A DNA stretch of 64,000 nucleotides from a virus (IMGVR_UViG_3300031227_000032:1-64000); one strand, 5' to 3'; counted from the stretch's first letter, positions 3,481 through 61,653 are shown. Numbers and translations are program-made. Notes: generated by a model from the letters alone, not told the origin.

Positions 3481-4956
3481 CTATTCGGCATATTTTCTGG
3501 CTGCTGGCGCGAACATGCCCAGCGCGGGTATCCAGGCCATCGTCACGGTGTCCGTCGGGCCGTTGCGGTTTTTGCTGACAATCACCTCTAAGCTGTCAAT
3601 CTGCATATGTCCGCATTGATCACACCTGCCCGCCACATAGAAACCGTGGCACTGTGAGCACTGCTGCGCAACCTGTTTATCATAGTAGCTCTTACGGTGT
3701 AGGAACATCACTACGCTTGCGTCATGCTCGATAGCGCCGCTCTCACGCAGGTCTGACAGTTCAGGTCGTCTATCACGCTGCCCCGATTCTGCGCGCTTTA
3801 GCTGGCTGAGCACGACTACCGGTATCTTTAGGTCACGCGCAAGCTCTTTCAGCCCACGGCTCATACTGCTAACTTGCTGCTCACGGTTCGGAATGTTTGG
3901 CGGCGAGATAAGCTGCAGGTAGTCAACAATCACTAGCCCGATATGATGCTTGATATGATGCTGACGTGCGATGGATTTCAGCGATCCGATGTTCACCGTT
4001 ACATCACTCAGATACAGCGGTAACTTTCGGGTATCCTGCGCTGCAATCTTCAACGCCTCCCAACCGTCGCCGTCAGGGATATTGCCGGTCTGCATTTGTG
4101 TGTTTGATATGCCGTCCGCTTTTTGCGTTTGCCGATTGGTATGATGTGAACCCAGACTCAGCAGACGTTCTGTCAACTGATCAGCACCCATCTCTAGGCT
4201 GAATGCCAGCACGGGAACGCCTAGCGCGGCGACGTTACGCGCAATGTTGAAAGCGAACGCCGTCTTGCCCATCGAAGTGCGAGCGGCAATGATAGTAACT
4301 TCCGTCGGCTTAAATCCAGTGCAAATCTGATCTAAGTCTTTGTATCCAGCAGGCAATCCCGCGCTGATCGGCACTGGCTTACCGGTAGATATACACTCTT
4401 GGCAAGTGTCCCGACGCTCATTCAACCCAGCGAAATACTCATCAACCGCTTGCTTGATATGCACCGTACCGGACGGACACATTGACCGTGATAGGTTGAT
4501 AACCGTCTGCTCAGCTTGTTCCATGATCTGCAGATCGGACATTTCCTGCCGATAGCACTCTTCGATGATCTGAGTACATCCGCGAATCAGCGCGCGCAAG
4601 TGTGCTTTTGATGCTAGCTTTTTAGAATGATACTCAACGCTGGCTGCGCTCGGGACGCTATTTAACATTGCCAGTACGACTGCCGCGCCGCCGACCTGCT
4701 CCAGCAAACCACGGGAGCGCAACTCATCTAGCACCATATCGCTGTCAGGCGGTGTGCCGCGCTCGTGTAGTTCGCCCATCATTTCAAAGATAACGCCGTG
4801 TCCGTCCAGATAGAATGATTCTTTGCTGAGAATATCAGACGCAACCTGATATGCGTTCTTTGGCTCTAACATTATGCCGCCCAGCACACACATTTCAAGC
4901 TCGATGTTTTGCGGTGGGGTACGCTCTACGCTAAATTTGGGATCACGTGGCATCAT
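3481..4956 (-). CDS. dnaB: Replicative DNA helicase DnaB
   Basis: N-terminal PPQNIELEMCVLG, Walker A AARTSMGKT, FSLEM, IVDYLQL, LSQL, DLRESGAIEHDA, KNRNGP. Confidence 0.95.
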   Translation of the reverse strand: MMPRDPKFSVERTPPQNIELEMCVLGGIMLEPKNAYQVASDILSKESFYLDGHGVIFEMMGELHERGTPPDSDMVLDELRSRGLLEQVGGAAVVLAMLNSVPSAASVEYHSKKLASKAHLRALIRGCTQIIEECYRQEMSDLQIMEQAEQTVINLSRSMCPSGTVHIKQAVDEYFAGLNERRDTCQECISTGKPVPISAGLPAGYKDLDQICTGFKPTEVTIIAARTSMGKTAFAFNIARNVAALGVPVLAFSLEMGADQLTERLLSLGSHHTNRQTQKADGISNTQMQTGNIPDGDGWEALKIAAQDTRKLPLYLSDVTVNIGSLKSIARQHHIKHHIGLVIVDYLQLISPPNIPNREQQVSSMSRGLKELARDLKIPVVVLSQLKRAESGQRDRRPELSDLRESGAIEHDASVVMFLHRKSYYDKQVAQQCSQCHGFYVAGRCDQCGHMQIDSLEVIVSKNRNGPTDTVTMAWIPALGMFAPAARKYAE

Positions 4957-10455: not shown

Positions 10456-11634
10456 TCATTCTCCTTTCAGCGTAATAATAGGTTTCAGCTTGTGAACTAC
10501 GTCCAGTATATCATACTGCAATTCGATCACTTTGTCAACGTCCTTATACGCGGCGGGGCATTCATCCAGATACGCCTCATGCGCAGGCGTCAGCGTGTGC
10601 GCGATAGAATCAGCGAACTCCGATACTGATACTGCGCGCTTAGTTGCGGTGCGTGAGCGTACCCTACCGGCCCCGTGCGAGCAACTGTGATATGAGTCCG
10701 CATTCCCTTTGCCGCGAACGATGTAACTTGACGTGCCCATGCTGCCTGGAATAATACCAAGCTCATTCTCGCGCAATCTGGTAGCGCCCTTGCGATGGAT
10801 GATAACATTCTGCCCGAAATGATGCTCCCAAGCTGCGTAGTTGTGGTGAATGTTGATCATGCGTGATTCGTCAAGTTCGATGTTCAGCGCGGCAAGTGCC
10901 TCTCGCATCATCAGCTTACGATTTGCAAGCGCGTAGTTCAACGCCCAGTTCATATCGTGCATGTAATCTTTATGCGCATCAGTGCCGAGCGGTAAAAAGT
11001 GCAGCCCTGGCGGTACGTTGGAATGCCAGTGCGTATTAAGCTGTTTAGCAATGCCGCTGTACCATAGCGCGATATTGAATCCCGTCTTGCGCGATCCGCT
11101 GTGCAGCATAATCCACACTTGGCCGTCCTGATCGTATTGCGCCTCGATAAAGTGGTTGCCCCCGCCGAGCGTGCCGAGTTGCCTGATCTGCATTTCAAGC
11201 ACGTTAGCGAAGCTACGCCCAGGCTTGATATTCGCACGCACTTGCCCGTCAGATTCAGCGCATATGTCCTGTACAGCGTCGGCGCGTGCCTTGCTAATCT
11301 CATCATGCTTATTGAAGCCAGACGGCACACGTTCGCCAACTGCCATCAGCCAGTCAACCCAATATGCATCTGCATAATCACCGCGCATAATGCCAGTCGG
11401 ATAAGCACACATACCGCAGCCGATATCCACGCCCACTGCGCACGGCATTACAGCGCCAATCAGCGGGATAACCGAGCCGATGGTAGCGCCGTCGCCAGCG
11501 TGTACATCAGGCATAACGGCAAGGTGACGGTACAGCATAGGTAGTTTGACAATGTTATCAATCTGCGCTAGTGCTGTAGCTTCAACATCTTCGATACTGT
11601 CTAGCCAGATTTTAGCTCTGTTGTGGTCAATCAT
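10456..11634 (-). CDS. rtcB: RtcB family RNA ligase
   Basis: MPDVH, VGVDIGCG, GTLGGGNHF, LHSGSR, HHNY, HRKGA, IPGSMG, SHGAGR, AYK. Confidence 0.95.
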   Translation of the reverse strand: MIDHNRAKIWLDSIEDVEATALAQIDNIVKLPMLYRHLAVMPDVHAGDGATIGSVIPLIGAVMPCAVGVDIGCGMCAYPTGIMRGDYADAYWVDWLMAVGERVPSGFNKHDEISKARADAVQDICAESDGQVRANIKPGRSFANVLEMQIRQLGTLGGGNHFIEAQYDQDGQVWIMLHSGSRKTGFNIALWYSGIAKQLNTHWHSNVPPGLHFLPLGTDAHKDYMHDMNWALNYALANRKLMMREALAALNIELDESRMINIHHNYAAWEHHFGQNVIIHRKGATRLRENELGIIPGSMGTSSYIVRGKGNADSYHSCSHGAGRVRSRTATKRAVSVSEFADSIAHTLTPAHEAYLDECPAAYKDVDKVIELQYDILDVVHKLKPIITLKGE

Positions 11635-23820: not shown

Positions 23821-24000
23821 ATGAAGCGATCAGAAGTGACAATCGGCGACGTGTATTTAGCAAAGGTCAGCGGCGTTATTTGCCGCGTGAAGATCGAAGC
23901 GGAGTCGCGTTACGGTGGATGGGATGCGCGCAATCTGGATACTGACAAGCGCGTGCGTATCAAAACTGCGCAGCGGTTGCGGGGTAAATGTCGTGAGTAA
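23821..24000 (+). CDS. Small beta-rich hypothetical protein (59 aa)
   Basis: [18 protein letters not shown]...[23 protein letters not shown]; GGAG RBS. Confidence 0.6.
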
Positions 24001-24001
24001 T

Positions 24002-24712
24002 ATGAAACAAGCTATCGTTTACATACGAGTGTCAACTAAGCGTCAATCAATCGAGGGTATGGGGCTAGCCGCACAGTGTACACGTGCGCAGGCATGGTGT
24101 GAGTATTCAGGCTATACTATGACCGCCGTTTACATTGAACGCGGAACGTCCGGTAGGCGGGCTGATAATCGGCCAGCATTGCGCGAAGCTATAGCTGCGT
24201 TAGGTAGTGGTAACGCTTTGGTAGTTTACTCGCTGTCAAGGCTTGCAAGGTCGTTAATGGATGCGTGCCATGTGCTCATAGAACTAGAAGCTATTGGTGC
24301 TGACTTTGTTTCGGCAACGGAAAATCTTGATACAACATCTAGTGCGGGTAAATTATTGTTTCACATTCTGTCGGCATTTGCAGAGTTTGAATCAGATCAG
24401 ATCAGCGACAGGGTATTAGCTGCATTTGAGCAATGCCGCGCAACGGGCCGTGCGCACTGTGCGCAACCTGTTTATGGTTTCGATCATGTGCCGGTACAGA
24501 TTGGCGATAAGGTCAAATATAATTTAGAGCCGAATGCAACCGAGCTAGCGGTGATTCAGGATATGCGGGATATGCGGGCCGCTGGTATCAGCTATGGCCG
24601 GATCGCGGATAAGCTGAATAATGACCACGTGCCGACGAAACGCGGCGGGGTGGCTTGGTATGCTTGCGGAGTGCGGAGTATCCTGCAGAACAAGTTGCAC
24701 GATAAGGACTAG
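24002..24712 (+). CDS. Serine recombinase (resolvase/invertase family) with partial recombinase domain
   Basis: YIRVST catalytic Ser, LSRLARS, DTTSSAGKL..ILSAFAEFE, PVYGF. Confidence 0.9.
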   Translation: MKQAIVYIRVSTKRQSIEGMGLAAQCTRAQAWCEYSGYTMTAVYIERGTSGRRADNRPALREAIAALGSGNALVVYSLSRLARSLMDACHVLIELEAIGADFVSATENLDTTSSAGKLLFHILSAFAEFESDQISDRVLAAFEQCRATGRAHCAQPVYGFDHVPVQIGDKVKYNLEPNATELAVIQDMRDMRAAGISYGRIADKLNNDHVPTKRGGVAWYACGVRSILQNKLHDKD

Positions 24713-40373: not shown

Positions 40374-43300
40374 TTAATAACCCGTCGTGCGCATTTGCCC
40401 ACGTAGTGTATTGCCGCGCGATACTTGCTGTAACCGTTGCGCTTTCGTGACGTTCAGCATTTCTGACAGCAGCCGTTCGCGTTCATTGTTAGTATCGAAT
40501 ACATAGATCGGATTGCTGGTAGACTCGCCACGGTTTTTCTTGCCGCCGAATAGTCCGCCGAATAGTGCTGATATTCCAGCGCCCAGGAATCCGCCGATGA
40601 CAGGCCCGAAGCCGCCCATGCTACCAAAGCTGGACGTGATAGCCTGTGTGAGTGGCTGTACAATCGCGTCCGCCACGCCTGACCAATCGTTAGTGCTTAC
40701 CGCTGTGAATAGTGCATCGCCTAGCTGCGCGGTGAATAGCGTAGCCGTCTGCTGTGCTTGCTGTGCGATTTGCTCAGTAGCTCCACCAGTAGCGCCCAGA
40801 CCGGACGCATCAGCCGTGCCTCAACCGCCAGGGCCGCAAGCCGCATTACTTTCGCCGTATGTAGGATCATACCCACCGGCCATAATGCCGATACCGCGCA
40901 TCTCCAAGCCGAGTGCTGCAGCCCCAACGCCCATGTGTGATTGTTGAGCAACAGCGCCTAGTGCCCGTCCGCCAATGTCAGCAGGGGTGTTACGAATCCA
41001 ACCTGCGCTATCACTACCACCCGACTGGGCGGCCACATCAGCGGCTAGACTTAACGCATCATTAACTGTCCGCTTGGCCGTTGCCAGTGAGCCTATTAAT
41101 GATCGCTCGATAGCATCAGTAACCGCCATAATCGAAGCCACTGATGCGGTCTGCATTGCAGTAAACGCACTGACCATTTCAGTATGCAGATCAGTAACGC
41201 GCTGTAAGACACGTGGCACGGATTCATCTACAGTGTCATAAATCCCTTTCCACATGTCAGGCCAGATTGAATGGCCTACAATGAGATCCCACGCCCATTG
41301 AAATGGAGCCACTACGTTCTTTGCGAATGTCTCGATCTCTTTAACGACCTTGCCTACAAATTCAGTTACGGTAGCCCATATGCCATCCCACAAGCCAACC
41401 CAGAACTCCGTTATATCAGTATTGACGTTTTCGAACCATTCAGTAATATCATCAATGAAGCCAGATATAAACTCGCCAGTATTAGCAGCAATTGTATCAG
41501 CAGTATCGGCGATAGTTTGCCATGCTCCCGACCAATCGCCAGTAATCAATTTCAGCCCAACCTCGAAGATACCACCGACAATAGCAAGCGCGTTTTTAAC
41601 AACAAGTTTGATCGCATTCCATACGGTTGAAATGACAAGCTTAATGCTTTCCCACACAATGCTAACAGCGGCCATGAACGGCGGCCCCCACTTATCCCAT
41701 ATGATCTTGATAGCATCCAACGTAACGCTAAATGCTTCTTTAATCAGTGGCCAGTTTTTCATCCACCAATCAATGATCGGCTGTACTAACTCCAGCGCCT
41801 CAGCGCCAAGCCAACCGAATACCTCACCGGCTTTATCCCTTATGGCAGTGAGTGTCGGACTGATTTTATCCTTGACTTCCTGAATCTTTTCTGCGAACGC
41901 GCTAGCCTTTTGTTCACCCTCAGTCAACGGCCCGACGAATCCGTCAGCAGGTGCTTTGCCTGTCAACGCATCCCATGCTGCGCGAACTGTTTCAATCCTT
42001 TCGGCCAGAACTTGCGCGCTAACCTCCGCCTCACTCAATGGCCCGATAAATCCCGACTGAATCTTATCCGGCCCCTGCCCAGTCAATGCCAGCCATGCCG
42101 CCTTGACAACATCCATAGCCTGTGCTATCTGCGGGAAGTTGCTGTCAGCAAATGATTTAATCTTACCCCAGTTGGCGATGATCAACGCACCGCCCGCCAC
42201 AATAGCAGCTACAGCAATCCCGATAGGGCCAGTCATGGCGGTAAATGCAACACCAATACCTGGCGCGGCAGCTACTATGTTCCCAATGATCATCAGCAAC
42301 GGGCCAAGTGAAGCTACCACTCCGGCGGCAATCACTCCGAAATTCAATAATACTGGATTGGTTTTTGCCAGATTTTGCACGAACGGTATTGCGGCTTCAA
42401 CTAATGAGACAAAGCCGTCAAGCAGTCCGCTGTCTGAGATTGACAAGCCTAAGCCCTGCACTGCTGAACTGAGTCGCGTCAATACCGGCGTTACTTCTGT
42501 AGCGATCCGCGCAGCCGTGCCAGCCGAGGCCAGGTTCGCCTCAGATAGTCTTTCTAGTGCCGCGCTGCCCTGATTCACCAATGCGGCCATAGCTGGCCCT
42601 GCACGCTGTCCAAAAATAGTCATAAGCTCAGCGGTTCTTTCCACTTCGCCCATGCCTTCCAATCCCTCTTCAAACTGCGCGATGATATCAACAAGCGGCA
42701 GCATAGCACCATCCGCACCTTCAATACTAACTTTGAGTTTCTTAAGGGATGCAGTGGCCTTTGCGCCTGGATTGATCAGTAGCGATATAGCGGTCTTGAG
42801 TGACGTACCCGCCATGCTTCCCTGAATACCAGCGTTACCTAACAGACCAACAGCGGCAGCGACCTCTTCAAACACAAGCCCAGATGATGATGCAATCGGG
42901 CCTACGAACTTCATTGATTCGCCAAGCATCCGCAGATCAACATTGGCGCTAGTGAATGTGTTAGTCATTACATCCGCTACGCGCGTCATTTCAGTGGCCT
43001 CAAGGCCGAAACCAGTCAGGATGTTAGACGCAATATCGGCAGTAGTCGCTAGATCAATCTGACCAGCGGCGGCAGCGTTCAACACACCGGGCAACGCGCC
43101 GATAATATCCACAGCCTTGAAGCCCGCCATTGCGAGGAAGCTCTGTGCATCAGCGGCTTGCTTGGCTGTAAACGCCGTGGTCTCGCCAAGCATTTTGGAC
43201 TGCTTACGTAGCTTCGCAAACTCTTCAGCGGTGGCACCTGACAATGCACGCACGCGATTCATCGAGTTCTGAAAGTCAATGCCGAGCTTAATGATCGCAG

Positions 43301-43502
43301 CGCCGACGCCGACGATAGGCAACGTCAAGCCCATCGTCATTTTTCTGCCGACGCCCGCCATCTGACTGCCCGTCTTTTTCCACGCGGCGGCTGTCTTTTG
43401 CGCAGCAGTGACGCCCTTTTTACCAGCGTCAGTCAGCGGCTTGCTGAGCTTGTCTTTCAGCTCTAGTACAACCTCTAAGATTTTCTGATCAGTGTTTGCC
43501 AT
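40374..43502 (-). CDS. Tail tape measure protein (TP901 type), 1042 aa if the in-frame TGA at 40821-40823 is read through
   Basis: PhageMin_Tail core (FTAKQAADAQSFLAMAG, GIQGSMAGT), W/F helical repeats; frame stays open past TGA into a typical TMP Gly-rich C-terminus (GGFLGAGISALFGGLFG), TAA abutting the next ATG. Confidence 0.85.
40784..40820 (-). promoter_or_regulatory. Putative bacterial SECIS after TMP UGA
   Basis: UGA-12nt-GCGUCC-GGUCU-GGGCGC; GGUCU at +22..+26. Confidence 0.65.
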
Positions 43503-43845
43503 TCTTTTTACTGCTCGCCTTTTCTTTAGCCGCGTCAAGCTCGGCTATTTTTCTGTCAATCACGCCCATCGCAGATATGTACCAAACAGGTTGATCCTCA
43601 AGCCCGCCTGCACGGAATGAGAATCCATTTTTGTAATGAGCATATAGCCCATTCAAGTAAACGCTCAGTTCGGATACATCTTTCCACGGGCAGTGGGTAG
43701 CATAGATAGGCTCTATGCAATCCCCCACCCGTCGCTCGTCAATCTGCAGCATCCCATCTGTACAACCTACTCTACAGTTAGCTTCGTCAAAGTTGCATCC
43801 GGAACATCGGTCTCCGATTCCGTGCTGGAGTTTGATGTAAAATTT
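43489..43845 (-). CDS. Tail assembly chaperone T domain (-1 frameshift product)
   Basis: GGLEDQP.WY motif; -1 frame open from the slippery site to the stop. Confidence 0.7.
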   Translation of the reverse strand, partial: KFYIKLQHGIGDRCSGCNFDEANCRVGCTDGMLQIDERRVGDCIEPIYATHCPWKDVSELSVYLNGLYAHYKNGFSFRAGGLEDQPVWYISAMGVIDRKIAELDAAKEKASSKKNGKH

Positions 43846-55409: not shown

Positions 55410-56153
55410 TTATCTAGGCTGGTCTGCTTGCCATTGTCTGATGCTCGCTTCGTTGCGTGGCTGAGTGTCCGCTATCCATTGCGCGAGTGCTGGGTTAAGC
55501 GGGCCTTTGTGACGTTTCATCCAGGTGTAGGGATCGCGGGCATGCTTGGAGTAATTACACCGCTGGCACGCTGGTATGATGTTATCTTGTGTGTATGGCC
55601 CATCATTGTCTTGTGCAATGAAATGTTCCTGATGAAACTCTTTACCTATTTCTGATTCTGTCCGATTGCAATATGCGCACCGGTGATTAAACAGCATCCA
55701 TGTATCTTGTCGTTGTTTTGGTGTCAGTGTGTCCGGCAAGTTGGCTTTGCGCGCTCTGCGACGTTGGTCTTTCATCCGGCATAGTTCTCTGCCCCTGTCA
55801 GTTGCGCGGTATACTTTACCATATTTAGCAGTCCTGTCTTTATGAACCTCGCGCCAGATCTTGATGCGATCATGATTTCGCTCATATCGCGCCTTTCTAC
55901 ATGCGGCAATATTCTCTTTGTTTGCTTCACAGTATGCCTTGCGAGTTACGGCAATCTTGTCTTTGTAATCTACACGATATGATTTGTCACGTGCGGCTTT
56001 GCGGTCTTTGTTGGCTTCATAGTACGCCTTGTCAGACATCTTCATGCACATTTTACATGCGCTCTGCAATCCGTCCCGTTTCCCTTTATGCTTATAAAAC
56101 TCGCCAACAGGCTTCACTTCCCCACACTTGCTGCATCGCTTAGTCTTACACAT
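55410..56153 (-). CDS. HNH endonuclease with N-terminal zinc finger, predicted leaderless
   Basis: CSKC..CKMC, helical repeats, CAYC..EH..N.IPAC..CN; TTGACA(56188)-17-TATACT-6nt-ATG. Confidence 0.85.
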   Translation of the reverse strand: MCKTKRCSKCGEVKPVGEFYKHKGKRDGLQSACKMCMKMSDKAYYEANKDRKAARDKSYRVDYKDKIAVTRKAYCEANKENIAACRKARYERNHDRIKIWREVHKDRTAKYGKVYRATDRGRELCRMKDQRRRARKANLPDTLTPKQRQDTWMLFNHRCAYCNRTESEIGKEFHQEHFIAQDNDGPYTQDNIIPACQRCNYSKHARDPYTWMKRHKGPLNPALAQWIADTQPRNEASIRQWQADQPR

Positions 56154-56315: not shown

Positions 56316-56783
56316 CTATGCTGGATTCAGCAGATTGCCGCTAGCAGGCACGTTACCGTGACCACGAATCGCATGCACGCCGATAATGACACCGTAAGAC
56401 CACGAGCCAGTCAGCGTGATATAGACGCGGTAGAAATCGTAGTCCGGGTCAATCTTGACGCCCGCCATATAACTCTCGCTGATCTCTGTGTCATCGTTGA
56501 CGAATCCGAAAGCATTGGATGTGCTCTCGCCGTCCTTGCTGATCAGATCAGTTGCGGCGCAATCGGTATAGGTTCCGCCGAGCGTGGTACATTTCTGTAC
56601 CTTGCAAGTGACATAAACGGTTGACCCGAGCGTATCGCTGGAAGCGCCATAGTCCACTAGGAACGTGAGTGAGTTCCATCCGCCCATGTCAATGCCCGTC
56701 ACTTCCGTAGTGGCAGCACTGATAAGGATTGGCGACTGCAGTTTCTCAATAGATTGAGTATCAACGTTGCTTTGACTAGCCAT
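56316..56783 (-). CDS. Head decoration / capsid accessory protein
   Basis: Follows MCP; GIDM.G...L.F...YR.Y beta-sandwich pattern. Confidence 0.55.
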   Translation of the reverse strand: MASQSNVDTQSIEKLQSPILISAATTEVTGIDMGGWNSLTFLVDYGASSDTLGSTVYVTCKVQKCTTLGGTYTDCAATDLISKDGESTSNAFGFVNDDTEISESYMAGVKIDPDYDFYRVYITLTGSWSYGVIIGVHAIRGHGNVPASGNLLNPA

Positions 56784-58072
56784 TAGGTGATCTCCAGAAT
56801 TTTGATTGCTTCACTCTGTGCGACCTTGCCACCATAACGCGCATACCACTTGAATACCACGTTCGGGCTTGAGCTGAACGGATCACGCAGAATCCATACG
56901 TCCTTACGTCGCACAATACGGTAGCCCTCGCGGAAATCGCCTAGCATCAGCGGCTTATTCCCGTCAACAGCATCATTGTCCATAGACTGCGAAATGTCAT
57001 ACGGACGCCCCGCGAGCATGACCGGCGGGCCTTCCTTCAGATTGCGCTGCCAGATGAATCCACCGTTATCGTCTTCGAGCTTCATTGCCTTACCCAGCAC
57101 AGTCGCATTCATCAGGAATGTCGAACTATTCTGGTAGCGTGGCAGCAGTCCCGTACCGTCGTCGCCGTTACCGGAAAGCAGCGAATAGAAGTCAACCGCT
57201 TCGAGTAACCAAGTGCTCGTGTCATTGCCGGCCACGAGGTCAACGTCAGAGGTAGAGATGATACCTTCCGGCTTGCCGTTGCCATCACCTTCCAGGAAGG
57301 CGACTCCCAGCGTATAGCCGATAGCCTCGCCAGCGTCCTTAGTCAGCTCGTTTTCCATGTAACTAACATCCTGCAGCAACGAAGTGGTAGCAGGGGTGTT
57401 GACGCCTACAATGTGAATCGGAATACTGACCAGGTTATAAACCGACTGACTCGCGGTCGCATCGCTTTCCTCGCCAACCCAGTAACCGGTAGGCCCAGCA
57501 GAGCGCCGACTAAACCGATACTCGTTGGAGTTTTCCAGCGTAACTACGCGAGCATACTTCATAATCGGATCAACGCTGACGGTGTTCTTAACAATCTCAT
57601 CAGTCTGTTCCGGAGTGACAAGGAAACCGCCAGCGGTAGCCACGCCCTCAGACAATGCGCGGGTAGCAATAGCCTGAAATTCCTGACGCGCCATAAACTC
57701 CTTAGCGAGCCCAGGATTATCGTCACGCATAAACGCATGACTAGCGACGCGGTGCTCTTCTTTCAGCACGTCAGTTTCGCCAGCGGCATTACTCCGCGAC
57801 AGCTTAGTGTCCAGTTCGTCAATGCGAGATTCCAGCGCTTCAGTAGCATCTTCGCGTGCCAGCTTATCAGCGTCATTGGCAACCCGCGCCTCGCCGACCT
57901 CTTTAGTAACGCCGACTACTTCTTCAGTGATGCGAGCAAACATTTCGTCAACGTCGCTGCGGGCAACCTTGCTGCCCAAGAGCGTTTGCATTTCCTCAAC
58001 GTGCTCGCCAATGTCGCCGAGCCGATTCTGTAAATCGGTGCCCAGCTTTTCAAAATTAAATTCGGTACTCAT
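56783..58072 (-). CDS. HK97-fold major capsid protein
   Basis: Coiled-coil delta domain, GGFLV.P, W..E, AFL.GDG..KP.GI, GDF, R.GG. Confidence 0.92.
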   Translation of the reverse strand: MSTEFNFEKLGTDLQNRLGDIGEHVEEMQTLLGSKVARSDVDEMFARITEEVVGVTKEVGEARVANDADKLAREDATEALESRIDELDTKLSRSNAAGETDVLKEEHRVASHAFMRDDNPGLAKEFMARQEFQAIATRALSEGVATAGGFLVTPEQTDEIVKNTVSVDPIMKYARVVTLENSNEYRFSRRSAGPTGYWVGEESDATASQSVYNLVSIPIHIVGVNTPATTSLLQDVSYMENELTKDAGEAIGYTLGVAFLEGDGNGKPEGIISTSDVDLVAGNDTSTWLLEAVDFYSLLSGNGDDGTGLLPRYQNSSTFLMNATVLGKAMKLEDDNGGFIWQRNLKEGPPVMLAGRPYDISQSMDNDAVDGNKPLMLGDFREGYRIVRRKDVWILRDPFSSSPNVVFKWYARYGGKVAQSEAIKILEIT

Positions 58073-58103
58073 AGATTCCTCCGATGAGTAAAGTAAATGT
58101 GTG

Positions 58104-58841
58104 TTACAGTTTATTTGCAACAGTGGTAGCGGTGTCTATCAGCGAGTGCAACATGCGCGACTCAGCTTCATTAGTAGCGGCTTGAGTGGATTCATCCGGC
58201 TCAAGTGCTGGCGCTTCAATGTCAGCTTCGGTACTGCCGTGCCCGTCGCCGTTGTCTGCAAGGTATTCGTCAAGCTGCGTAGCATTCGGAATGCTCACGC
58301 CTAAATCTTGAAGTAGCTGGATTGTAAACCTAACTTGCGCTAGATTATATGCGGATCGCATTTCATTGACTCCAGCACTCGGCCCAGCCTGCCAGTCTGG
58401 AGGTGTAATCGAATATTCAAATAGTCTCGCCTCTTTAACATGATTAACTTGCTTATCGTCAGTCTCCATTTGCATAGGTTGGAAGCCGACGGATAGACCA
58501 ATCTTACGATCAGCCTCATGTACCAACTTCATATATCCCCACGTCTCTTTAGCGATGGCGTGAGTCTCGATACTCAGCTTCGCACTGACTGCTAGGCCGT
58601 GCAGGTCTTCCGTTGCTGACTGCCCCAATCCAATCGGCGGTCTGCCAGAATATGAATCGTGCATATACAGCACTGATACCTTGCCGCCATTCTCCGATAG
58701 CGTCTTTTTATATGCGCCAGGGTCTACCATTTCGTTGTAGCATTCAATCAGTTCATTGAACACACTGGCGTATCCGTCAAACTCTCCTGTATCGCGCACG
58801 TCGGCTACGCGCATTTTAACGGTGTAATAATGTCTATCCAT
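58104..58841 (-). CDS. HK97-type prohead protease
   Basis: FDGYASVF, L..HD, GLSVGF, L.EYSI; start MDRHY. Confidence 0.9.
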   Translation of the reverse strand: MDRHYYTVKMRVADVRDTGEFDGYASVFNELIECYNEMVDPGAYKKTLSENGGKVSVLYMHDSYSGRPPIGLGQSATEDLHGLAVSAKLSIETHAIAKETWGYMKLVHEADRKIGLSVGFQPMQMETDDKQVNHVKEARLFEYSITPPDWQAGPSAGVNEMRSAYNLAQVRFTIQLLQDLGVSIPNATQLDEYLADNGDGHGSTEADIEAPALEPDESTQAATNEAESRMLHSLIDTATTVANKL

Positions 58842-58878
58842 GTTTCCCCCGTGGCGGGTAGCCGCCGTGTTTATCCTC

Positions 58879-59766
58879 TTAAGTTTTCGGGCGTAATTGT
58901 TTATCACCTGGTAGCATCGGTGACAATCCGCAACGGCATTGAATGTCAAACGCAGCCTTGCCGCTCAGCATCGGCCCTTCGATGAAACCGACCTGATTGA
59001 ATGTATCAAACAGCCCGTCCGCATCCGTCACGGCTCCGTCCATGACGATGTGACTGTACATGTCTTTGCCACCGCCACGTACTAAGCTATCGCGTGCCGT
59101 TAGCCACTCTGAACGTATCACAACATCCAAGTATTCGGCGGACTGTTTGTAACCTTCAAGCTCTGCTTTAATGTCCGCACGTCCGACTTCGGTTCTAGCA
59201 ATAGCGTTGCTACGCGGTTGTGTGATCGCATCAGTCTTGCCTGACCATTCGGCGTATTTCTCACTGATTGCTTTCGATGTAACCTTGAAGCCCTGATCTG
59301 CAGTATCAGCGATGATGACCTCTAACTTTGCCGCGCTGGTTTTGTCAATCAGGTTAGAGCGTATATGTAAATTCTCAGTAAGCCACTTCCGGAAGTCAGG
59401 GCGATCAGGTGCGAACGCCGGTAGCTTTTCCGCTGCCAGTACTGCAACCTCATCGACTGCCAACTGCCCGAACTCAGCTACTAACTCAGCTTGCAATGGG
59501 CCAATGATCGCAGCATACGCGGCATTTTCCACTTCAGGATTCAGCAACGGCTTAGGCTTATCAGCGCGTGTCTGTGCGGTCTTGAGTACCCGCGCCTCCT
59601 GACCTACCCAGTATTTTTCAATGCCCGCCTTGTAGCGTTCCTGCCACGGCTCGCGTATCTTATCCTGATCGGCTAATCGCTCCTCACGATCAGCCAGCGT
59701 TGGATACTTACTGCTGGGGAATGTAGGCTCATCGCCTATATCGTCATCGACCCGATGACTTGGCAC
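58879..59766 (-). CDS. MuF/gp7-like head morphogenesis domain (likely C-terminal part of a portal fusion)
   Basis: IARTE, W.T.RD..VR..H...DG, QCRC; in frame with the portal and no well-spaced RBS. Confidence 0.8.
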   Translation of the reverse strand: MPSHRVDDDIGDEPTFPSSKYPTLADREERLADQDKIREPWQERYKAGIEKYWVGQEARVLKTAQTRADKPKPLLNPEVENAAYAAIIGPLQAELVAEFGQLAVDEVAVLAAEKLPAFAPDRPDFRKWLTENLHIRSNLIDKTSAAKLEVIIADTADQGFKVTSKAISEKYAEWSGKTDAITQPRSNAIARTEVGRADIKAELEGYKQSAEYLDVVIRSEWLTARDSLVRGGGKDMYSHIVMDGAVTDADGLFDTFNQVGFIEGPMLSGKAAFDIQCRCGLSPMLPGDKQLRPKT

Positions 59767-59769
59767 GCC
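59731..59769 (-). promoter_or_regulatory. Putative bacterial SECIS after portal UGA
   Basis: UGA-10nt-GUCAUCG-GGU-CGAUGAC perfect 7-bp stem. Confidence 0.65.
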
Positions 59770-61122
59770 TCATCCGCAGGTTTCCAGATACGAACGCATA
59801 GCGCGCGCCGCCTCTTTTGTTTCATTCTCTTCGGTATCGACTCCGATCTCCTCTGGCTGGAGTTGTTTCAATGTATCTGGCAGTCTGATATACGGCTTGT
59901 TCAACGGGTTATCCGGATCGTCAGGCTCGATCATTTCAAGCCCGCTGGCTTCGCGCTTTTCGTTCGGGGTCATCCAATCGCTGTTAGCAAGGTTGTGCAC
60001 TCGTTCCGTTACGTTATCCTGCAGCGCGTTGATTCCGCTTACAATCGGTAACAGCTTTACATCATCTTCAAGCCCCATCTTAGGTAACACAAACTCTGCA
60101 AACTCCTCGCGGAATAAGCGATGCAATGGCAATACTGTATTCTCATAGAGGAATCGTTCAGCGGACTCGACATTGTTATACGTTGATGATTTGTCATCGC
60201 CGACTAACTGTGACGGCACGCCCAGCGCCGCGCAGATATGCCGCATTGTCACACCAGCGCCGCTAGTCCAGTCCATCTCTTTCGGGCTATGCGCGAGTGC
60301 CATATAGTTAGACTTCTCGCCGTCAATGAAAGCCGTCGCGCCTGCGTTAGATGCACCGCTGAACTTATCGTTGTAATCCTGCTCAATGCGTGCGCGCACT
60401 TGCGGAGTCAGTGAACTCCAACCCGTAATCTGCAACACACCGCCTGGTACTGCACTATTAGTAAGTAGCTTAGAGTTCCAAGCTAGCTGTAGGTTGCTGG
60501 TATCAATGTCCGTCGCTGCAGCATTCAATGGTGATAATCCAAACATCGGATGCGCAGGATCGGTGAACTTCACGTTATACATTTCGTCAGGCGTCAGATA
60601 GCGTTTATTGCCAATGCCTGTTTCGATAACGTACCGACTGACTGTGCGATTATCTGTGGTTTCAATCGTCACGCGGTCAGGCAATTCGAGATACATTTCA
60701 GGTGCGGTCTTGGGTTGCGTCTTGCCATTAGTCGTGCGCTTGCCAATGCCGATACCTTCGATGTATGTGATACCGGCAAGGTGAAGCTGATTAGACCACA
60801 GCGCGATGAACTCGTGATAGCCTTGATTCGGATTGAAGCGCTGCACTAAGTTGTACAACGGCTTGACGCGCGGGGCTATATCATCCTGCGTTACAATCTC
60901 GCCCTCATACTCGATGCCGATTGGTACTGCGCAAAGGCCGTTGCCGATTACCCGCAAGCAGGCATATACAATCGGATTGTGCCGATACGCCTCTTTGTAA
61001 AACTCATTGAATCGGCGCGCGCGAAACTCAGCACTGACACCGTTAGTATCCTGAATCGTCAGAACCTTAGCGCGCAACATCGACCGTAGTATGAAGTTTT
61101 GGAATCGTTGTTTAAGGTTCAT
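59770..61122 (-). CDS. HK97-family portal protein (747-aa portal-MuF fusion if TGA is read through)
   Basis: VYAC..VI, PN, GLSPL, PGGVL, GASNAG, ICAALGVP, TYNN.E, TPNE.R. Confidence 0.92.
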   Translation of the reverse strand: MNLKQRFQNFILRSMLRAKVLTIQDTNGVSAEFRARRFNEFYKEAYRHNPIVYACLRVIGNGLCAVPIGIEYEGEIVTQDDIAPRVKPLYNLVQRFNPNQGYHEFIALWSNQLHLAGITYIEGIGIGKRTTNGKTQPKTAPEMYLELPDRVTIETTDNRTVSRYVIETGIGNKRYLTPDEMYNVKFTDPAHPMFGLSPLNAAATDIDTSNLQLAWNSKLLTNSAVPGGVLQITGWSSLTPQVRARIEQDYNDKFSGASNAGATAFIDGEKSNYMALAHSPKEMDWTSGAGVTMRHICAALGVPSQLVGDDKSSTYNNVESAERFLYENTVLPLHRLFREEFAEFVLPKMGLEDDVKLLPIVSGINALQDNVTERVHNLANSDWMTPNEKREASGLEMIEPDDPDNPLNKPYIRLPDTLKQLQPEEIGVDTEENETKEAARAMRSYLETCG

Positions 61123-61125
61123 AGT

Positions 61126-61653
61126 TTATCCCGTCGCCAATATATGAAATGGCGGCTTGACCGTTCCCTGTAGCGCCGCTGATGCTGATAGCGCAGTCTT
61201 AATCCTAGTCTTGGGCGCTTGCCCAGCAGTGCTGTATAGCGAGCCTAGCGCAACCATATAGCCGCTCCCTACTGATTCGTAGCCGCAGTGCGCACGGTTG
61301 TACTGAAAGTCATGAAAGTTATACAGGTGCTTACCCCACGCGATCAGGAATTGCCCAGCGGACGCTTTGTTATTTTCCAGCGCGGCAAAGTTTAGATCAG
61401 TGAATACCGGTCTCAGTAACTCGGTTATGTTGTATGCGTGGCGGTCAGGATCATTATGTATTTGGTCAGGCCACTTGACACCGTGCTTTAGAATCTGAAT
61501 CATACGATAATCCGTCGTGCCGCCCATGACATACGGCCCGCGCTTGAATAGCTTGCGGTCGCCCTGTGAGATGCTAGTCCACTCATTCGCCGCCGCGCTG
61601 TCAGCTCCCATGTACACGACGCCTTTATGCTTTAGGGCTACAATGCAAGTCAT
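61126..61653 (-). CDS. HslV/proteasome-like Ntn hydrolase
   Basis: MTCIV N-terminal Thr, GADS, K, GSG...ALG.L. Confidence 0.75.
   Translation of the reverse strand: MTCIVALKHKGVVYMGADSAAANEWTSISQGDRKLFKRGPYVMGGTTDYRMIQILKHGVKWPDQIHNDPDRHAYNITELLRPVFTDLNFAALENNKASAGQFLIAWGKHLYNFHDFQYNRAHCGYESVGSGYMVALGSLYSTAGQAPKTRIKTALSASAALQGTVKPPFHILATG

Follow-up and report, generated by a model that had tools for sequence, protein, structure and literature searches.

In the viral DNA stretch IMGVR_UViG_3300031227_000032:1-64000 (referred to here as the window, i.e. all 64,000 nt that were analysed), the genes for a portal protein and a MuF-like minor head protein were found to be adjacent on the minus strand, in one and the same reading frame, and to be separated by an in-frame TGA stop codon and a single further codon. 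As judged from its homologs, this portal/MuF pair is an interrupted fusion, since continuous portal–MuF fusions represent the rule among its nearest relatives. The explanation that we favour, and hold to be probable, is that an ancestral portal–MuF fusion gene underwent secondary fission, following which MuF would be produced by termination–reinitiation at a GTG codon just past the stop. An earlier note on this DNA had proposed that the UGA is read in part as selenocysteine (Sec), and had named separate translation of MuF from the GTG as one outcome that would contradict this proposal; such separate translation now appears to be the best-supported reading. From the overall interpretation given in that note, the portal–MuF fusion, here interrupted, is retained, whereas the selenocysteine mechanism is not.

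The open reading frame (ORF) of the portal protein (59770-61122, minus strand; 450 aa) was identified in the ORF list and by its match to Pfam PF04860 (Phage_portal; E 1.6e-49), and its product ends in ...YLETCG, after which the DNA reads TGA, GGC, GTG. The TGA (59770-59772, minus strand) interrupts the ancestral portal–MuF frame, while the GTG (59764-59766, minus strand), which is the proposed reinitiation codon, opens an ORF of 295 codons without a stop (58879-59766, minus strand) in the same frame. The product of this intact ORF, the MuF-like minor head protein of 295 aa, exhibits a weak match to Pfam PF04233 (Phage_Mu_F) that is below the cut-off (20.4 versus 29.6 bits), its family being confirmed by homologs, and alignment revealed that all family-invariant residues are kept. 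Conserved MuF sequence, of the form P-x-S-x-Y-P-T...R, sets in at residue 17 of this ORF; residues 17-27 (59686-59718, minus strand) read P-S-S-K-Y-P-T-L-A-D-R and contain the nearly invariant alignment columns S471 and R479, and the GTG is the sole canonical in-frame start codon by which this N-terminal motif is kept.

Consistent with a fusion protein, a portal domain is followed by a MuF domain (phmmer E 1e-57 versus fused homologs), and conceptual read-through of the TGA yields a product of 747 aa; both this size and that of the 450-aa portal, as given in the earlier note, were reproduced from the ORFs. The single uninterrupted ORF of a fusion protein is, however, not present here, as it is cut by the TGA at 59772-59770. 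The stop codon and the canonical start codon of the intact downstream gene are instead located within a few nucleotides of each other (TGA-GGC-GTG), as is the case for coupled gene pairs.

A Shine-Dalgarno-like GAGG (59768-59771, minus strand) overlaps the stop codon and ends 1 nt 5' of the GTG, which is too close for it to act as a ribosome-binding site (RBS). Downstream, a perfect hairpin (GTCATCG-GGT-CGATGAC; 59743-59759, minus strand) with a stem of 7 bp and a GGT loop begins 10 nt past the TGA and 4 nt past the GTG, the loop being located at +21 to +23 as counted from the U of the UGA. The hairpin alone has a folding energy of -7.2 kcal/mol. In minimum free energy (MFE) folds, a GGC (59734-59736, minus strand) was shown to pair with a GCC (59762-59764) that contains the third base of the GTG, the structure thereby extending over the start codon; this lower stem and further pairs enclose both stop and start, with energies of -11 to -16.9 kcal/mol. 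Folding of the 101-nt junction region is not unusual (z -1.28). The sequence statements of the earlier note, concerning the junction, the frame, the spacing of the GAGG, the hairpin, the position of its loop and the GCC/GGC pairing, were all found to be correct, on the minus strand.

To place this junction among its relatives, a HMMER (phmmer) search was performed with the 295-aa MuF protein, which returned 236 matches at E<=0.001, 37 of these at E<=1e-10 and one of the latter being the query itself. Most of the 36 non-self matches at E<=1e-10 (28/36) are 661-746 aa long and carry the MuF match at their C-terminal end, and the remaining eight are shorter (130-409 aa), several being evident fragments. 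Alignment of 24 long proteins to the read-through product showed that each represents a portal and a MuF part in one chain. At the DNA level, where loci were located in IMG/VR using a 6-sequence alignment, all six loci containing both halves (6/6) were shown to be uninterrupted ORFs. A continuous fusion at the same position, for which the earlier note had suggested looking, was thus found repeatedly. Among the 102 loci searched, both halves were observed on one strand in 35, comprising 15 fused and 20 separate arrangements, with some of these loci representing the same contig from two collections. The statement in the note that portal–MuF fusions occur in phages is borne out by these 15 loci and by the fusions described in the literature (PMC7302621, PMC5512222). 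The separate-gene loci form a distant clade, in which 90-230 nt separate the portal and MuF frames.

A phylogenetic tree of portal sequences was constructed from 44 rows: ten loci each from the 15 fused and the 20 separate ones, two loci with a portal only, 21 of the 28 long proteins, and the window. Duplicates and the remainder were omitted; a quick method was used, for which support is given as Shimodaira–Hasegawa-like approximate likelihood ratio test (SH-aLRT) values only. The fused protein P0005 was recovered as the sister of the window portal (SH-aLRT 99), which lies inside a clade of 14 rows that consists of the window and 13 fused rows (SH-aLRT 99). Since the window portal is nested in a fused clade, the interruption is derived from a fused ancestor. 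This fused ancestry of the junction, as traced through the portal sequences, is a new addition to the description of the locus.

The stop codon falls in the variable interdomain linker, within ~12 residues for which most homologs show a gap. Stand-alone MuF homologs (P0025 and P0030) begin shortly before the same conserved S-x-Y-P-T motif, and these start positions, together with the existence of separate genes (20/35 loci), mark the linker as a natural break point. A search of the phage collection at the DNA level gave no match, and a search of viral contigs with a peptide pattern of the MuF ORF gave none either. The closest MuF relative is a piece of 194 aa (P0003; 58% identity), the locus of which was searched for and not found. 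A different type of junction was observed at one other locus (L021, 2380-2640, corresponding to the L039 contig). There, an acidic repeat rich in GAT/GAC forms the end of the portal ORF, and conserved MuF sequence resumes directly past its stop codon, shifted to the +1 frame; the overlap contains several ATGs. A split of the frameshift type, a programmed shift and an indel error within the repeat are all conceivable.

The manner in which genes are packed in this genome is relevant to the translation of MuF. Almost half of the adjacent minus-strand ORF pairs (29/65) are located within -10 to +15 nt of each other, and 11 of these 29 close junctions are in frame, four of them with an exact 3-nt in-frame gap. 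Many genes exhibit a clear Shine-Dalgarno (SD) sequence at 5-9 nt. A well-spaced SD core was observed for 30 of the 66 minus-strand ORFs, and is absent in 12 of the 29 tight junctions, the portal gene included. Tight stop–start coupling without a dedicated RBS is a habit of this genome. The earlier note had pointed to the 1-nt spacing between GAGG and GTG as an argument against an RBS at this position; the spacing is indeed too short, but it makes no case against separate translation of MuF, because the 12 tight genes mentioned above also lack an SD core. At the other end of the portal gene, a 175-aa ORF ends in TAA one codon before the portal ATG and in frame with it (61123-61128, minus strand), a layout that matches that of the portal/MuF junction and is counted among the four exact 3-nt gaps.

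According to the fission and reinitiation model, the UGA would release the portal as a 450-aa protein, and terminating ribosomes would reinitiate at the GUG 3 nt further on, generating, by translational coupling, a separate 295-aa MuF protein. As a start codon the GUG is weak; it has no well-spaced SD sequence, is positioned in or just before the hairpin, and would probably be difficult to access for free 30S subunits. The hairpin, starting 4 nt past the GUG, and the lower stem, which takes up the last base of this codon, would be expected to hinder free initiation further. Because of the weak GUG, the lack of an SD sequence and the hairpin, MuF synthesis would require portal translation in cis and would reach only part of the portal level; the poor SD sequence and the structured start codon are thus suggestive of a dependence of MuF translation on that of the portal. 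A low dose of MuF would fit what is described for phage SPP1, where the MuF-like protein gp7 attaches to the portal and only a few copies are incorporated into the procapsid (PMC6316719).

Several observations weigh against this explanation. A single in-frame stop, or the exact layout of a stop plus restart, was observed in none of the 35 other loci (0/35). The best portal relative is 45% identical and no closer one was found, which limits any assessment of the conservation of the GTG. Furthermore, a hairpin so placed is rare by chance (9/3131 TGA triplets, see below), is not needed for reinitiation and could equally serve readthrough. Finally, a free MuF protein, having long been covalently fused before, might bind the portal poorly.

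To assess the hairpin, its chance level and its conservation were determined. Perfect hairpins of at least 7 bp occur 18 times per strand in this genome, and such a hairpin with its loop at +16 to +37 was found after 9 of 3131 TGA triplets. Looser rules, of the type applied to selenocysteine insertion sequence (SECIS) elements, were satisfied by 94 of 3130 TGA triplets (3.0%) and by 4 of 93 gene stops. The presence of a perfect hairpin at the junction of a broken fusion therefore represents a coincidence of roughly 0.3-3%, and the coupling, readthrough and SECIS models all make use of this hairpin. In the linkers of fused homologs, a hairpin of at least 7 bp was found in one of 10, which is near the genome background rate; the exception, P0006 (L002, about 2860-2880), harbours a perfect hairpin with a 7-bp stem and a 3-nt loop over V-G-T-V-P-T codons. 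No repeat copies of the junction hairpin were detected in the window. A role as terminator was considered and rejected, as no T-run is present 3' of the hairpin. Elsewhere in the window, the TGA of a 905-aa ORF (40821-43538) is followed by a hairpin that also fits the loose SECIS-type rules (40760-40823, minus strand; -8.9 kcal/mol, 6 bp, 5-nt loop, spacing 18), and which serves as a chance control.

Alternative explanations for the interrupted frame were weighed against that of fission with reinitiation. The probability that the TGA is misassembled, or that it is a sense codon in the phage or its host, is considered to be negligible. The open frame past the TGA is all that speaks in favour of this notion. 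Contigs from four sequencing runs besides the likely source (X2 to X5, which are salt-lake metagenomes from four studies, 2017-2018) span the junction with 0 differences (X2, 58879-59847; X3, 59698-59863; X4, 59626-60056; X5, 59348-59859), and, with the likely source included, the identical sequence is present in five runs under five studies (2017-2019). The identical junction in four other runs rules out an assembly error and shows that the TGA is persistent. In the portal gene, one 196-nt contig of X4 differs at 17 of 126 compared positions (60137-60262) and stops short of the junction, and therefore represents a diverged strain of the phage in the same habitat. A sense reading of TGA is likewise ruled out, since TGA is an ordinary stop codon in the 72.5-kb phage record, where it ends 34 of the 93 ORFs of at least 80 aa (compared with 30 for TAG and 29 for TAA), including structural genes; large genes are intact under translation table 11, and no tRNA genes were found in the window. 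A genuine TGA might also be a nonsense mutation that inactivates MuF in a phage or prophage able to do without it, the downstream ORF being silent and as yet undecayed, which we consider unlikely. Such tolerance is conceivable, as SPP1 gp7 is described as dispensable, ~25% of those virions that lack gp7 being infectious (PMC6316719). The record may be that of a temperate phage, because it encodes a serine recombinase, in which case the identical sequences could reflect a clonal host, and it was judged to be 67% complete. However, MuF is intact over all 295 codons with its family-invariant residues, a start codon directly follows the stop, the same sequence recurs across the five runs and studies mentioned above, and the other genes of the head module show no breakage.

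Readthrough of the UGA, leaky or programmed, by a near-cognate tRNA other than tRNA-Sec is a possibility of somewhat greater, though still low, probability, and might operate alone or together with reinitiation. Aided by the downstream structure, it would yield mostly the 450-aa portal and a minority of the 747-aa portal–MuF protein, such that few of the twelve portal subunits would carry MuF. UGA readthrough is known from the RNA phage Qbeta, where it yields a minor capsid protein. In the window, the frame is kept across the stop and the ancestor was fused, the hairpin with its lower stem starts directly after the stop and is of a kind that is rare by chance, and the portal TGA is followed by G, which is a minority context (5 of the 34 TGA stops, compared with T in 18/34). 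Conversely, readthrough would render the start codon one codon past the stop superfluous, and in-frame neighbours are common in this genome (11/29 close pairs), so that a shared frame is not distinctive. The hairpin proper begins 10 nt after the stop, whereas typical recoding stimulators start closer than this. Moreover, an in-frame single stop is found in 0/35 other loci, the linker hairpin is absent from 9/10 fused homologs, and the single literature match found for stop codon readthrough in a phage portal protein appears to concern P2-like phages.

Insertion of selenocysteine at the UGA by SelB and tRNA-Sec, with the hairpin acting as SECIS element and a minor portal-Sec-MuF protein as the outcome, is regarded as very improbable. 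The conserved coding sequence of the MuF part downstream of an in-frame UGA is as expected for a selenoprotein gene. The bacterial SECIS consensus is given as a loop of 3-9 nt, a stem of 4-16 bp, a G in the first two loop positions, a distance of 16-37 nt from the UGA and an MFE of -7.5 or lower (PMC13188914), and the hairpin fits this loose geometry (loop 3, stem 7 bp, G first, spacing 17 nt). Its energy alone (-7.2 kcal/mol) is, however, slightly short of the limit of -7.5, which is passed only when the lower stem is included, and the specificity of the consensus is low, given the 94/3130 TGA triplets and 4/93 gene stops that also fit. The hairpin is without a bulged base, a bulged U being a main SelB determinant in Escherichia coli, and the junction gave no family match in Rfam, where sub-threshold, snoRNA-like noise was the only signal. 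Homologs with cysteine at the UGA position, which the note had suggested as a check, were not found: none of the 24 aligned fused homologs (0/24) has a cysteine in the linker region, the site being a gap in most, and conservation is also lacking for the cysteine of the proposed 'CxU' motif, located two residues upstream of the stop. The site itself is a variable, probably unstructured linker, without redox context. A search confined to tRNA-Sec, selB and any tRNA detected none of these within the 72.5-kb record, which is that of the phage and not of its host. Attempts to identify the host by tblastn of DnaB and the capsid protein returned just 28-37% matches over many phyla, and a lookup via GTDB relatives led to unrelated lineages of metagenome-assembled genomes. 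No phage selenoprotein was found among the literature titles in the matches listed, and the words 'phage' and 'virus' are absent from the main text of a 2026 review of prokaryotic selenoproteomes (PMC13188914). The partial Sec readthrough proposed in the note, judged by the lack of linker cysteines, the 3% background of SECIS-type hairpins, the lack of an Rfam match and the absence of tRNA-Sec and selB from the phage record, is not supported.

The portal and MuF genes form part of a head module with the gene order terminase large subunit, 175-aa ORF, portal, MuF-like protein, S78 prohead protease and HK97-type capsid. The prohead serine protease (S78) gene is next downstream of MuF (58104-58949, minus strand; Pfam PF04586, E 6.5e-14), these coordinates being those of the longest ORF, the true start of which is probably located further in. 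It is followed by the gene for the major capsid protein of the HK97 type (56783-58120, minus strand; Pfam PF05065, E 5.2e-56). An HNH endonuclease gene (55410-56153, minus strand) was observed downstream of the major capsid gene, from which it is separated by a 155-aa ORF; a 548-aa ORF comes directly after it. Further from the head module, the window encodes a DnaB helicase (3481-4956, minus strand), an RtcB-type RNA ligase (10456-11634, minus strand; E 1.4e-102) and the above-mentioned serine recombinase (23915-24712, plus strand). Such a ligase is suggestive of the repair of tRNA that host defence has cleaved, in view of RtcB being of this type. With DnaB, RtcB, a serine recombinase and many clear SD sequences, this phage is bacterial in style.

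If fission with reinitiation is correct, the junction would represent an ordinary but clean case of a fused head gene split at its linker, and a route by which a phage may pass from a portal with twelve covalently attached MuF domains to a smaller dose that can be tuned. If, on the other hand, readthrough takes place, the junction would be a rare example of stop-codon recoding that sets virion stoichiometry in a tailed dsDNA phage, with few MuF domains on a dodecameric portal, and would be the equivalent, in a dsDNA phage, of the Qbeta A1 strategy, having arisen from a fully fused ancestor. A selenocysteine at this position would have been the first phage selenoprotein, and is not supported by the comparative evidence.

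With respect to known systems, the closest likeness is to the portal–MuF fusions published for Microbacterium phage clusters EA3/EA5/EA8 and EB (PMC7302621) and to the portal/MuF-anchored polyvalent proteins that have been surveyed (PMC5512222). As far as described in these sources, the same two domains occur there in the same order, and by sequence the window is nearest to the fusions of 661-746 aa; in the window, however, the frame is cut by the TGA in the linker, which would give two primary products. In SPP1, the head module contains separate, adjacent genes for the portal (gp6) and, after it, a MuF-like protein (gp7), and few MuF copies would be expected by analogy with the account given for that phage (PMC6316719). 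Compared with the separate-gene loci surveyed here, in which 90-230 nt lie between the ORFs or the frames differ, the window exhibits a one-codon, in-frame gap and is derived from a fusion. The bacterial selenoprotein genes share with the window an in-frame UGA and a small hairpin with a G-containing loop at a permitted spacing, whereas the window has no Cys homologs, no redox context, a match of background-level specificity and no Sec machinery in the phage record. The Qbeta A1 read-through protein would follow the same logic if readthrough occurs, i.e. a leaky UGA that determines how much of an extended minor structural protein is made relative to the major one, but it is a different protein and belongs to an RNA phage. 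Translational coupling by termination–reinitiation is known in bacterial and phage operons, and with such coupled pairs the window shares a stop and a start within 3 nt, a weak start codon without a well-placed SD sequence and a predicted local structure over the start.

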